Sequence record: KY703222
Source of the DNA: Escherichia phage phiC120
DNA length: 64,000 nt
Strand: one strand, 5' to 3'
A program made the translations under genes and the position numbers. The notes below the pieces were generated by a model. The model did not search any database, was not told where the DNA came from, and was given only the letters and a program-made list of their open reading frames with translations. Shown here one piece after another: positions 20,030 through 23,213 of the stretch (positions are counted from its first letter, which is position 1; every line of letters starts with the position of its first letter).

Positions 20030-20206
20030 TTATGCAACAACCTTTCCAAAACGAGAAGCATCATCTCGAAGAACTGCACGTGCTCTGCGCATGATCTTCT
20101 CAACTGTTTGATTAATACGAGAGTTCGACCCACGCTTGTATCCAGCGCGTTTAGAATCACCGACTTTCTTTTCAACTGCTTTCTTTGCTTTAGTTTGTTT
20201 TGCCAT
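20030..20206 (-). CDS. small basic protein (58 aa)
   Basis: Hand-translated MAKQTKAKKAVEKKVGDSKRAGYKRGSNSRINQTVEKIMRRARAVLRDDASRFGKVVA; lysine/arginine-rich; below the 60-aa cutoff. Confidence 0.4.
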   Translation of the reverse strand: MAKQTKAKKAVEKKVGDSKRAGYKRGSNSRINQTVEKIMRRARAVLRDDASRFGKVVA

Positions 20207-20578
20207 TATAAATTCTCTTTAAATGAAAATGCAGGACTTATTGACATTGCCTGCTCAAGCCCTCAAGGGGAACATAGGTTTTTGGATATTTAACGACCAG
20301 GATAACCATAAACCCGTCATCATACCTTATAGCTCTTATCTGTTGCACACCGTTAGCTTAAAGGTTCCGGGTTCGATTTCTCGAGGATAAGATATATACT
20401 GATGGATATATAGGCCTTGAGGCGTACTCCCGATTAGCCATCACCTCGGGGTAGCATGCACTTACCGCTATAAGAACAACATTCAAGAGGTACACCGTAA
20501 AATTGTCGGGGCGGTACTTCTAAAACATACCGATTCGCAAATCGATAATCAGACAATTCGACGGCTCCTCGATTTAAC

Positions 20579-20827
20579 TTACTTCAGGGTAATAACAAAA
20601 TGACGAACTGCTTTACGAGCTGCTGAAGCCAGAGGCTTAGCATATTTCAATTCATCTTTCTGAGCCAGTACATCACGAAGATCGGCCTGTGCTGGATTCA
20701 GATGTTTGAAATACTGTAAGATTTCCAGTGCTTCGGCTTCAACATCAATTGACGCACCGTAGTTTTCGTGACCATTATTCCATGCATGGCGTTGCAGTTC
20801 AAGAGCGTGTTGTAATTGTTTAATCAT
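20579..20827 (-). CDS. rIII: RIII lysis-inhibition accessory protein
   Basis: 82 aa; MIKQLQHALELQRHAWNNGHENYGASIDVEAEALEIL... close to remembered T4 RIII. Confidence 0.9.
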   Translation of the reverse strand: MIKQLQHALELQRHAWNNGHENYGASIDVEAEALEILQYFKHLNPAQADLRDVLAQKDELKYAKPLASAARKAVRHFVITLK

Positions 20828-20951
20828 TTTAAATTCTCAATTCGAGATAATATTTAGTAGCCACGTTCGTCTGAATTTCACCTTCTTTCGACAAGTCTCT
20901 CAGTTGTAGGCTACCGCTTAGAAGAGTGTTCTCTTCATATAGTTATTTATA

Positions 20952-21284
20952 TCACTTATAAAGACACGGAATAGCTTTATAGTGGCATGTTACGAATTTC
21001 TGTTTAATTTCTTTAGGTTGTTTAAGACCTAAAGCCACAAATGGATGTGGAACATTTCGAATTTGTCCAACTGGTAGTGGAGTCAAATCACCGGCTTCAA
21101 CAAAACCTTCAGGAACATCAGGACCTACAGAATGAACTACACATAGTTCAGGAACTTCACCTTGAACACGTTTACCAATCACAAGTCCTGATTCGGTAAC
21201 TTCTTCATCACCTGCTTGAGCGGGTTCAGAAACCAGAATGACATATTCACCAACAGCACGAATTGGGAGTTGTACTTCAGACAT
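20952..21284 (-). CDS. 31: gp31 co-chaperonin (GroES-like)
   Basis: 110 aa; [34 protein letters not shown]... close to remembered T4 gp31. Confidence 0.9.
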
Positions 21285-21650: not shown

Positions 21651-22221
21651 AAAAGTTTCGGATTTGTTCCCAATTCAGAGAACGAAGATTATTACGAGAG
21701 TACTGAATTACTTCAATACCAGCTTGTTTTAGAATATCTGCCCAATTTTCAGGAGATCGGTCGTATAATTCTGCGTATACGACCTTTTTAATACCTGACT
21801 GCGTAATAGCTTTAGTACAATCAGGACATGGAGAAAGCGTCGTATATAACGTAGCACCTTCAATAGAATTACCTTTACGAGCTGCAAACAAAATTGCATT
21901 CAATTCTGCATGGATTTCATTATTAGCAGACCATGCACTATGAGCAGCTCGATGTTCTTTGGCTAAAACAAAATTATCTACTCGTCCAAATGCTGTAGTG
22001 CCTTCTTTATGTCCAGCAACGATGACTGGGATTGGTTTATTCTTCAACCAACCATTTTCAGATGCATGTTCGCAACAGTTAACGCCACCTGCAGGTGAAC
22101 CGTTATATCCAGTAGAGATAATGCGTCCATCTTTTTCAATGACGGCACCAACTTTCCATGAACAACATTTTGATTCTTGAGAAATCAGATATGCAATCTG
22201 AAGGTATGTGCTAGCTTTCAT
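21640..22221 (-). CDS. cd: dCMP deaminase
   Basis: 193 aa; zinc-binding HAE...PCxxC motifs (HAELNAILFAA, SPCPDC); close to remembered T4 Cd. Confidence 0.9.
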   Translation of the reverse strand: MKASTYLQIAYLISQESKCCSWKVGAVIEKDGRIISTGYNGSPAGGVNCCEHASENGWLKNKPIPVIVAGHKEGTTAFGRVDNFVLAKEHRAAHSAWSANNEIHAELNAILFAARKGNSIEGATLYTTLSPCPDCTKAITQSGIKKVVYAELYDRSPENWADILKQAGIEVIQYSRNNLRSLNWEQIRNFCGE

Positions 22222-23213
22222 TATTGAACCTTATTAATATAAGTTAACAGCTCTTTAGTTTGTTCCCAACTGATGCACGCATCGGTAACGGAAACGCCAT
22301 AGGACATATTATCAGAAATTTTTTGATTTCCTTCATGTAGGAACGATTCTATCATAATTCCTTTGACCAAATCATTAGCTGCTAAATTTTTACCAATACC
22401 AATTTGATTGCTATAATGCCCATCAGCGTTTGCATGGCTACAGTCAACCATTACATAATGATTCAGACCTACTGCCCTTGCTTTGTTAGAAGCTTCTTGA
22501 ATATCAGAAGAATGATAGTTCGGGCCGTTGGTCCCGCCACGCAATACGATATGCGTATTCTGATTACCTTCAGCTTCAACAATGCCTACAGTACCATCGA
22601 CGTCCATACCCATATACCGATGAGGCCAGGCGGCACTATACATCGCGTCTGTAGCTACTTTAATAGAACCATTGGTTGCGTTCTTGAAGCCTACGCACAT
22701 CGGTAGACCTGAAGCAATTTCACGATGTGTCTGACTTTCAGTCGTACGGGCGCCAATAGCAACCCATGAGAAAATACCAGAAAGATACTTAATCGTGAAT
22801 GGGTCTAATACTTCAGTTGCTAATGGAAGTCCCATACGTAGAAGTTTACGACACAATGTTCGTGCAACTATAAGACCGTGGTTCATATCAAAACTTCCGT
22901 CAAGATATGGATCATTTACAAGACCTTTCCAACCTACGGTAGTTCGAGGCTTTTCAAAATAAACGCGCATCACTAACAGAACATTAGGAAGACGAGTTTG
23001 AAGTTCAGCCAGACGTTTGCCGTATTCAACAGCAGCAATAGGGTCATGAATTGAACAAGGACCTACAACAATAAGTTTGCGTGGGTCTTCACCGTTCATA
23101 ATCGAATTAACTTGTTCGCGATGAGAAGCCACTTGTGATGCGTAAGCTTCCGACAAAGGAATAATCTCAGCCAGTTCTTTTGGAGAAATAAGTTTTCCGA
23201 CGACAGGTAACAT
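22221..23213 (-). CDS. class I DAHP synthase (3-deoxy-7-phosphoheptulonate synthase, AroG/AroF-like)
   Basis: 330 aa; VMRVYFEKPRTTVGWKGL, IGARTTESQTHRE, GFKNATNGSIKVA, LRGG..PNY, VMVDCSHAN and IESFLHEGNQ align with remembered E. coli AroG motifs. Confidence 0.85.
   Translation of the reverse strand: MLPVVGKLISPKELAEIIPLSEAYASQVASHREQVNSIMNGEDPRKLIVVGPCSIHDPIAAVEYGKRLAELQTRLPNVLLVMRVYFEKPRTTVGWKGLVNDPYLDGSFDMNHGLIVARTLCRKLLRMGLPLATEVLDPFTIKYLSGIFSWVAIGARTTESQTHREIASGLPMCVGFKNATNGSIKVATDAMYSAAWPHRYMGMDVDGTVGIVEAEGNQNTHIVLRGGTNGPNYHSSDIQEASNKARAVGLNHYVMVDCSHANADGHYSNQIGIGKNLAANDLVKGIMIESFLHEGNQKISDNMSYGVSVTDACISWEQTKELLTYINKVQ

Follow-up and report, generated by a model that had tools for sequence, protein, structure and literature searches.

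The 147-nt core of the intergenic region between rIII and 30.9 in Escherichia phage phiC120 (positions 20327-20473, minus strand, of the 64,000-nt stretch of record KY703222 that was analyzed here and is called the window) specifies a non-coding RNA fold of six helices, which is maintained by compensating changes among related phages. This core is an optional, single-copy cassette, which occupies one of two loci, either after rIII or after uvsY.-2. The best-supported reading of its role, to which we assign a probability of roughly 0.55, is that of a free-standing and mostly late-expressed small RNA, which would bind a single conserved partner in trans.

The region came to attention through a sequence-only reading, which had described 20207-20578 as a gene-free gap beside rIII. 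These bounds proved to coincide exactly with the stretch between rIII and 30.9 in a T4-like phage of the Mosigvirus type; the closest relative of the phiC120 stretch is Shigella phage ESh27 (Mosigvirus), with 98.4% identity over 1 kb. The genes here are carried on the minus strand, in the order gp31 (Cpn10; 20952-21284), rIII (phrog_1457; 20579-20827), the gap, the 30.9 homologue (phrog_1427; 20030-20206, with its AUG at 20206), and, as the next gene downstream, 30.8 (PF06019; 19531-19899). The same reading had found the gap to be less A/T-rich than its surroundings, and its GC content is indeed 0.422 (the mean of the window is 0.377, and only 5% of 372-nt windows reach as high), with 0.449 in the core at 20327-20473. 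The claim that no open reading frame (ORF) exceeds about 27 codons is correct for ATG starts, for which the longest minus-strand ORF of the gap has 27 codons; when GTG and TTG starts are allowed, mechanical ORFs of 45, 40, and 36 aa appear on the minus strand and one of 55 aa on the plus strand, and none of these is conserved. Both of the inverted repeats that had been singled out are present as well: CCCGA-N12-TCGGG (20429-20450) is helix P2 of the core RNA, and GCAGG-N14-CCTGC (20231-20254) forms a hairpin that immediately precedes the ribosome-binding site of 30.9. Read along the transcribed (minus) strand, the gap is a string of three RNA-structure cassettes, which are module A (20575-20479), directly after the rIII stop codon; the core, or element B (20473-20327; 147 nt); and module C (20324-20207), which forms the 30.9 leader.

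The core corresponds to positions 1-147 of its covariance model and contains helices P1 to P6, all formed by the minus strand. In the modeled arrangement, P1 closes a junction that bears P2 and P3, with P4 stacked directly on P1 and carrying P5 and P6. The 5' arm of the closing helix P1 (AUAGC, 20467-20471) pairs with GCUAU at 20329-20333, and all 5 of these pairs have changed on both sides across phages. In phiC120, P1 can be extended to 8 bp spanning 20326-20474 (CUUAUAGC/GCUAUAAG); the 8-bp inverted repeat 20326-20333/20467-20474 is this extended P1. A nearly invariant single-stranded joiner, J1/2 (GGUAAGUGCAU, 20456-20466; consensus GGYAAGKGCAUG), precedes P2 (20422-20455), a long bulged hairpin (GCUAC-CCCGA-GG ... 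CU-AA-UCGGG-A-GUAcGC) with double-sided changes in 6 of its 12 pairs and inner pairs that alternate between G-U and G-C. A second conserved single-stranded joiner, J2/3 (CUCAAGGCC, 20413-20421), in which GGCC is invariant, is followed by the P3 hairpin (UAUAUA-8 nt-UAUAUA, 20393-20412); here every cell (100%) is paired, and double-sided changes occur at 3 of 6 pairs, as in the replacement of U-A by C-G in 11 sequences. The remainder of the core is the P4 domain (20334-20392), in which P4 (UCUUAU/AUAAGA) encloses P5, P6, the P6 loop L6, and the joiner J6/4 (GCAACAG, 20340-20346). Five of the 6 P4 pairs covary (CUUAUC/GAUAAG vs CCGUG/CACGG), and every pair of P5 (UCGA-GAAA-UCGA, 20373-20384) covaries through U-A, U-G, and C-G, with a GAAA (GNRA) tetraloop in most members. 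P6 (20368-20372 with 20347-20352) is the weakest helix, having one covarying pair of 5 and four invariant ones. It is capped by the 15-nt invariant loop L6 (GAACCUUUAAGCUAA, 20353-20367), which together with the GCAAC that follows is nearly invariant. Near-invariance extends to about 45 nucleotides in all, which lie in the joiners and the P6 loop.

Support for this fold comes from 36 distinct core copies, which were gathered from GenBank phages, IMG/VR, and metagenomes and whose sequence diversity is modest (about six clades, with an effective sequence number of 1.42 in the covariance model R1). The hand-refined six-helix model was tested against a MAFFT alignment of the copies (A2) that had not been fitted to it, and here 97.9% of cells were paired and 23 of the 38 pairs had double changes; none of 500 column shuffles of A2 matched the real alignment on any of five measures. 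Realignment by R1, which was built from the six-helix model, gave 98.0% paired cells and 24 of 38 double-changed pairs. In slid controls, where partners were shifted by 1-3 columns, pairing fell to 27-45% for A2 and to 25-49% over the MAFFT and the model-fitted alignments. An independent run of RNAalifold returned a multi-helix fold with compensatory changes in 22 of 40 pairs. Alignment and folding of the same interval in related phages, which had been suggested as a check, thus reveal compensating changes that keep the six-helix fold of the core. The paired cells include 38 G-U cells and 0 A-C cells, which identifies the folded strand as the minus, i.e. the transcribed, strand and argues for RNA rather than a signal in duplex DNA. 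Single-sequence folding of the phiC120 copy was no better than that of shuffles on either strand (z = -0.3 to -1.1), so the case for the repeats and the structure rests on the comparison between phages. Column covariation among the core copies established no tertiary contacts or pseudoknots, because the division into two main clades drowns out any such signal. Two candidate contacts were rejected: pairing of AAGG in J2/3 with CCUU in L6 fails in clades with AUGG, and an 8-nt complement between J2/3 and the C2 hairpin (repeat I4) is without covariation in other phages and is a near-palindrome coincidence.

The core is also more constrained than the genes around it. Its interior is 97.7-98.5% identical among Mosig-, Dhaka-, and Tequatrovirus copies (83-87% for module A), and against the Jiaodavirus and Kanagawavirus copies it is still 92-93% identical, compared with only 67-76% for gp31, rIII, and 30.9. 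Such identity across genera, 92-98% for the core and 67-76% for the proteins, means that the core must have a specific role. That role is not to encode a protein. A conserved protein-coding gene in related genomes, which the sequence-only reading had set against an RNA, was looked for and not found: no ORF is conserved in frame, start, or length across the clades of core copies, the mtp5 copy contains no ORF of at least 25 aa, core lengths (144-156 nt) vary in steps other than multiples of three, and the 45-aa ORF in the gap has no PHROG match. (Some GenBank records annotate small hypothetical proteins across the core.) The earlier proposal of a structured non-coding RNA is therefore strongly supported for the 147-nt core by covariation, by strand-specific G-U pairs, by conservation above that of neighboring genes, and by the lack of a conserved ORF; for the flanking hairpins of the gap it is supported more modestly.

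These flanking modules lie on the same minus strand. Module A (20479-20575; inverted repeat I2) is a 97-nt branched hairpin that starts 3 nt after the rIII stop codon; it is common to T4, JS09, JS98, and VR5 and absent from RB33. In its RNAalifold consensus, GCCGU/ACGGU is compensated as GCCAU/AUGGU and CGAUU/AAUCG as UGAUU/AAUCA, and in a further compensated stem GAAUUGUC/GACAAUUU corresponds to GAACUGUC/GACAGUUU, so that at least 3 compensated pairs separate T4-type from Mosigvirus-type sequences. The C1 hairpin of module C (20292-20324) has the form UAUGAUG-stem-(UUUAUGGUUAUC loop)-stem-GUUAAAUA; its stem covaries among 13 variants (GAC/GUC, GUC/GAC, GUG/CAC, GGC/GCC) and the loop GGUUAUC is conserved. 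C1 is found after the core position in phiC120, T4, COW86c, and EcS1 and before the core in Klebsiella, Edwardsiella, and Serratia phages, which indicates that the cassettes have been rearranged. The 30.9 leader proper (20207-20270), which is conserved in T4, JS09, RB33, and JS98, contains hairpin C2 (CCCCUUGAGGG, 20260-20270) and hairpin C3 (GCAGG-N14-CCUGC, 20231-20254), and then AAAGAG and the AUG at 20206.

The distribution of the core is that of a cassette. A BLAST search of the gap against 50,697 phage records gave matches in 992 records, and these matches are piecewise: T4 and many other phages match the two ends of the gap only, and in Klebsiella, Enterobacter, Edwardsiella, and Citrobacter phages the match is confined to the middle 135 nt, with 90-95% identity. 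The core itself is present in about 400-415 phage records, the number depending on the query copy, with a single copy in each; the hosts of these phages are all Enterobacterales, and the carriers looked up are T4-like myoviruses, mostly classed as Straboviridae. At the junction of modules A and C, where phiC120 carries the core, T4 has no sequence at all and the congeneric JS09 carries 41 nt that are unrelated to it; RB33 has module C only. In the 64-kb window R1 has one match, the core itself, at 171.6 bits. Among 40 rIII loci from IMG/VR, 15 contain the core, always downstream of rIII and on the same strand, and the other 25 have no R1 match even at E = 1; presence is therefore binary, with no decayed copies. 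The core is found at 2 of 11 uvsY loci, again with no weak matches, and all core copies score 118-176 bits with R1, no weak or partial copies having been found. A hidden copy in T4 was sought with R1 in the regions 60-110 kb and 112-134 kb, which include the uvsY/uvsW and rIII regions, and none was detected. BLAST against 5,426 E. coli genomes gave no core match, and by pattern search the core is absent from the GTDB species genomes; on these grounds an origin in, or mimicry of, the host was rejected.

As an optional cassette, the core occurs at either of two loci, the second of which lies after uvsY, uvsY.-2, and a small ORF and faces the convergent gene uvsW.1. Carriers at this locus are Pseudotevenvirus (Citrof4, GWPR59, GAP161), Slopekvirus (mtp5, phiEap-3, CPRSB), and Yersinia phage JC221; their copies have diverged (118-128 bits with R1), and RB43-like relatives are without the core. 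(The small ORF upstream was considered as a co-inserted protein partner and was rejected, being present also in RB43, which is without the RNA.) A T4 late promoter consists of an 8-bp TATA box at -13 to -6, in which -13 is the most tolerant position, with an AT-rich stretch after the box (PMC2988020). Directly upstream of P1, phiEap-3 has a perfect late box (TATAAATA-ctatc-G), mtp5 has CATAAATA-gtatt-G, JC221 has CATAAATA-agata-G, and Citrof4, GAP161, and CPRSB have AGTAAATA-taatt-G; of these four variants, one is perfect, two depart from the box at -13 only, and one departs from it at two positions. If the box occupies -13 to -6, the predicted +1 is the G that opens the P1 5' arm in all four variants of the uvsY clade. 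This phasing of a predicted promoter on P1 is the best sign that the core RNA may form its own transcription unit.

The situation in phiC120 is different in that no promoter motif adjoins P1. The only perfect late box in the window (TATAAATA, 20944-20951, minus strand) lies upstream of rIII and is the nearest recognizable promoter from which transcripts could run through rIII into the core. Transcription of rIII in T4 starts at early, middle, and late promoters (PMC9409239). Scans of the gap (20150-20640, minus strand) for early (TTTACW-N17-TAYWAT), MotA-type, and late patterns, with mismatches allowed, gave no hit, and a consensus scan gave neither a promoter-like nor a terminator-like site inside the gap and no terminator-like site between the box at 20944-20951 and the core. 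Consequently, the core RNA would here be part of the rIII transcript, and in the rIII clade, which is without a promoter directly upstream of P1, a discrete RNA would need to be processed from it; no processing site was identified.

These features suggest how the core might work. In phiC120 the core RNA would be co-transcribed with rIII, and in the Slopekvirus and Pseudotevenvirus relatives it would be made from its own late-promoter box. It would then be released as a discrete and stable RNA and would fold into a compact tertiary structure whose invariant junction and loop may bind a conserved partner in trans. This partner could be a host or core-phage protein or a small ligand, and the result would be an accessory benefit, for example as a decoy or sponge, instead of the regulation of an adjacent gene; it is the optional, cassette-like distribution that suggests such a role. 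Searches for the partner gave no co-occurring gene. The longest run of complementarity or identity between the core and E. coli 16S, 23S, and 5S rRNA or tRNA-Glu is 11 nt, within the shuffled range of 8-15 nt, and the rest of the 64-kb window holds no target of the invariant loop and no complementarity. A bolder version of the proposal, in which the core would be the first of a new functional class of phage RNA, either a new self-cleaving or catalytic fold or a high-affinity aptamer that soaks up a host factor or signaling molecule as a counter-defense "sponge" made of RNA alone, carried as a late-promoter-driven mobile cassette, is rather unlikely.

The foremost competing explanation, which we consider unlikely, is that the core is a cis-acting leader or riboswitch-like sensor, which would bind a metabolite or protein and control read-through into, or translation of, 30.9 and the 30.x genes. 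Every rIII-clade genome examined has the core upstream of 30.9 on the same strand, as is equally expected of a leader; hairpins lie between the core and the 30.9 start, and the near-invariant joiners and loop round a multi-helix junction resemble an aptamer. However, the core of the uvsY clade is the last feature of its operon, facing the convergent uvsW.1, and Pseudotevenvirus has no conserved downstream gene at this second locus. The spacing from core to 30.9 is variable, as are the intervening modules, with C1 either before or after the core, so that no fixed expression platform is tied to the 3' arm of P1; the same 30.9 leader exists in T4, JS09, and RB33 without the core; and no known riboswitch class in Rfam 15 is matched. 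A riboswitch is expected to lie consistently in the 5' leader of one class of gene, with an expression platform, and the core does not. Taken together, the two unrelated loci, the P1-phased promoter, the absence of any one constant gene downstream, the changing distance to 30.9, and the core-less leaders of T4, JS09, and RB33 argue for a free-standing RNA and not a leader of 30.9.

Next in order, and likewise doubtful, is a new self-cleaving or otherwise catalytic RNA, which might cut the polycistronic transcript and so separate rIII from the 30.x genes or generate a 3' end after uvsY.-2. The complex fold and the very highly conserved unpaired nucleotides of the junction would suit a catalyst, as would the position of the core between genes, within operons or at their ends, and its sporadic, cassette-like occurrence in phages. 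Small self-cleaving ribozymes have a similar distribution in phages. Nevertheless, no known ribozyme family is matched up to E 10, the length of 147 nt exceeds that of most self-cleaving classes, and the promoter predicted to start at P1 in the uvsY clade would make processing on the 5' side needless.

Less likely than either the cis sensor or the self-cleaving RNA, and itself improbable, is a passive element of mRNA architecture, that is, a stability or processing barrier or an insulator similar to the promoter early stem-loops (PeSLs), which would matter only as a recombination and transcript-boundary module. The whole gap is in fact a mosaic of hairpin modules shuffled between phages, the flanking modules A and C1 are simple covarying hairpins, and PeSL cassettes mediate shuffling of this kind in T4-type genomes (PMC2839356, PMC4122927). 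For such a purpose, however, a stable hairpin would suffice, whereas the core has six helices and about 45 invariant unpaired bases, with 92-98% identity across genera; furthermore, there is no early, MotA-type, or late promoter and no terminator-like site within 20150-20640.

A DNA-level site (replication origin, packaging, or recombination) or the decaying remnant of a mobile element or small gene is very improbable and, given the strand asymmetry, the covariation, the ORF analysis, and the lack of degraded copies, is essentially excluded, even though the core shows indel polymorphism with sharp edges and a fixed junction, is overlapped by annotated small hypothetical proteins in several GenBank records, and in one clade lies near uvsY, whose T4 homologue carries oriF. 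The constraint acts on one strand (38 G-U cells, 0 A-C cells) and compensatory changes keep the pairing rather than the sequence, and there is neither a conserved ORF nor a PHROG match. Of the other possibilities raised by the sequence-only reading, a replication or packaging site therefore finds no support, the core being dispensable in T4 and many other close relatives; nor does a degraded mobile-element remnant, since presence is all-or-none and every copy scores 118-176 bits, with none weak or partial, as is expected of an element that is not decaying.

Few viruses have been studied as closely as T4 and its relatives. Despite this, the core stretch is unannotated or labeled with spurious small proteins in the records inspected. 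Its all-or-none cassette distribution resembles that of accessory functions in host takeover or counter-defense, and the examples of these known to us are almost all proteins. The comparative signature of the family is unusually clean, and the family is experimentally tractable, for there are culturable phages of the same genus with and without the core (e.g. an ESh27-like phage and JS09) and the start predicted for phiEap-3 and mtp5 can be tested at one nucleotide. If nothing else, modeling the family by covariance would clear false "hypothetical protein" calls from genome records.

Comparison with known RNAs places the core outside the cataloged families. The covariance-model search that the sequence-only reading had proposed came back empty: none of the 4227 models of Rfam 15, which include riboswitches, ribozymes, introns, and sRNAs, matches inside the phiC120 or mtp5 core up to E 10, and the scans, which covered the gap as well as the core by itself, returned only chance-level snoRNA and UTR fragments of <17 bits. 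ARAGORN predicts 0 tRNA or tmRNA genes in the 64-kb window; a tRNA-like reading of the T-arm-like string GGTTCGATT was rejected, as it lies on the non-folded strand. A literature search of full texts, including literal sequence strings, found no description of the core RNA.

In its general architecture, the core is like riboswitch aptamers of about 150 nt and other multi-helix junction RNAs, with a closing P1, a junction, invariant joiners, and a P5 tetraloop that is mostly GNRA (GAAA). Unlike riboswitch aptamers, it is tied to no particular downstream gene or expression platform, is found at two unrelated loci, and has its own predicted late promoter in one clade. In its genomic behavior it is closer to the PeSLs, each of which consists of one stem-loop plus a sigma-70-type early promoter (TTTACW-N17-TAYWAT in the T4/PST group; Arbiol 2010, PMC2839356; Comeau 2014, PMC4122927). 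Like them, the core is a small non-coding intergenic module of T4-type genomes that varies between close relatives and marks modular shuffling; unlike them, it is built of six covarying helices, neither contains nor adjoins a promoter motif in the window, and is far more conserved in sequence. Membership of the gap itself among the PeSLs was rejected, there being no early promoter joined to a stem-loop (scan of 20150-20640, minus strand).

There are two further points of comparison. As a conserved, complex, covarying intergenic fold of narrow taxonomic range, it resembles the orphan "motif" families of Rfam and the DNAVirus_N candidates of a bulk survey, in which 8,495 candidate structured RNAs from IMG/VR, 29-151 nt long, are listed without names (PMC10690425). 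At 147 nt the core would stand at the very top of that size range, and the motif, whole or in part, may already be an unnamed entry of that catalog. It is also like T4 rnaC (species 1, 139 nt) and rnaD (species 2, 119 nt; NC_000866) in being a phage-encoded structured small RNA of similar size on the transcribed strand. These two RNAs have had no assigned function for decades. Unlike the core, which lies after rIII or uvsY.-2 and is absent from T4, they belong to the tRNA cluster, and rnaC has a tRNA-like arm at its end; homology to them was rejected, since a search of T4 60001-110000, where both genes lie, gave no R1 match and the invariant motifs are not shared. We class the core as a new RNA family, uncataloged in Rfam 15, of a known general kind, the phage-encoded structured small RNA.

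The core RNA, a 147-nt structured element of six helices (P1-P6), lies on the minus strand between rIII and 30.9 at the point where two neighboring modules meet. The first of these, module A, is a branched hairpin of ~97 nt (window 20479-20575, minus strand) that begins directly after the rIII stop codon. It is common to T4, JS98, VR5, and JS09 and is absent from RB33, and comparison of its T4-type and Mosigvirus-type sequences reveals compensatory changes. At the junction between module A and the following module C, the window phage has the 147-nt RNA, T4 has nothing, and JS09, a congeneric Mosigvirus, has a 41-nt filler (L050 ~925-965) at the position equivalent to window 20327-20478. Because this filler is unrelated and occurs exactly where the window has the RNA and T4 has nothing, the sequences suggest that the junction is a recurrent exchange point. 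In a 1.5 kb metagenome contig (QZLZ01027750.1, L041), the core RNA (947-1093) is identical to the window copy, and module A differs from that of the window by one base.

Two small hairpins accompany the core RNA. Hairpin C1, which opens module C (window 20292-20324, minus strand), has the form UAUGAUG-stem-UUUAUGGUUAUC-stem-GUUAAAUA; across 13 variants, T4 among them, its stem covaries and its loop is conserved, and it precedes the core RNA in some genera and follows it in others. A shorter hairpin, GU(A/U)CCC-loop-GGGGCUUG (window 20260-20274, minus strand; also near the element in L003, L002, L005, L007, L008, and L042), is a near neighbor of the core RNA in all clades and at both loci, that is, after rIII or after uvsY.-2. 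Most phages have this hairpin 3' of the core, and COW86c and EcS1 have it 5'; it may serve these phages as a shared signal of transcript boundaries.

Within the core itself, the EcS1 copy (L021 527-682; L044 2505-2660) carries a 7-nt insertion in the P6 loop, which is invariant elsewhere. The inserted stretch, CCUAUGGCC, is a near-repeat of the sequence running from J2/3, the conserved joiner of P2 and P3, into P3 (CAUGGCCUAU); the GGCC that it introduces could base-pair with the one in J2/3. This hints at a contact between the P6 loop and J2/3, for which no confirmation was found in other clades.

Several GenBank records have a "hypothetical protein" called across the RNA (ESh27, L004 1650-1787, URY13936.1; KEN39, L003 2004-2129, XHB23452.1; COW86c, L006 1495-1629, COW86c_228). 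Since their frames and lengths differ from phage to phage, these look like false gene calls. In the apical region of P2, the long bulged hairpin of the core, GAGGUGAUGG (window 20438-20447, minus strand) matches the anti-Shine-Dalgarno complement GAGGUGAU over 8 nt, and an AUG comes immediately after; this resemblance is probably incidental, since in other family members GAGGCGAUGG or an unrelated loop takes its place. The AUGAUG at the start of C1 opens mini-ORFs of very unequal length (MMTGLW..., MMWTLLVIPT, MMSWL, MMS), which are probably non-coding, with a leader-peptide role as a possible alternative. In the uvsY clade, a small ORF located just upstream of the RNA (L052 3610-3753; L061 3625-3711; also 5' of the RNA in L007 and L103) has a repeated acidic motif, DERPDL/EDEHPDF, at its C-terminus. 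RB43, which is without the RNA, has a shorter version that keeps both acidic repeats.

Directly upstream of cd (dCMP deaminase), the window contains a 330-aa ORF (22221-23213, minus strand) that is a class I DAHP synthase (PF00793, E = 5e-75), a phage-borne enzyme of the aromatic amino-acid pathway. EcS1 has the same gene at the equivalent position, annotated as phospho-2-dehydro-3-deoxyheptonate aldolase; T4 has cd.1 and cd.2 there instead.
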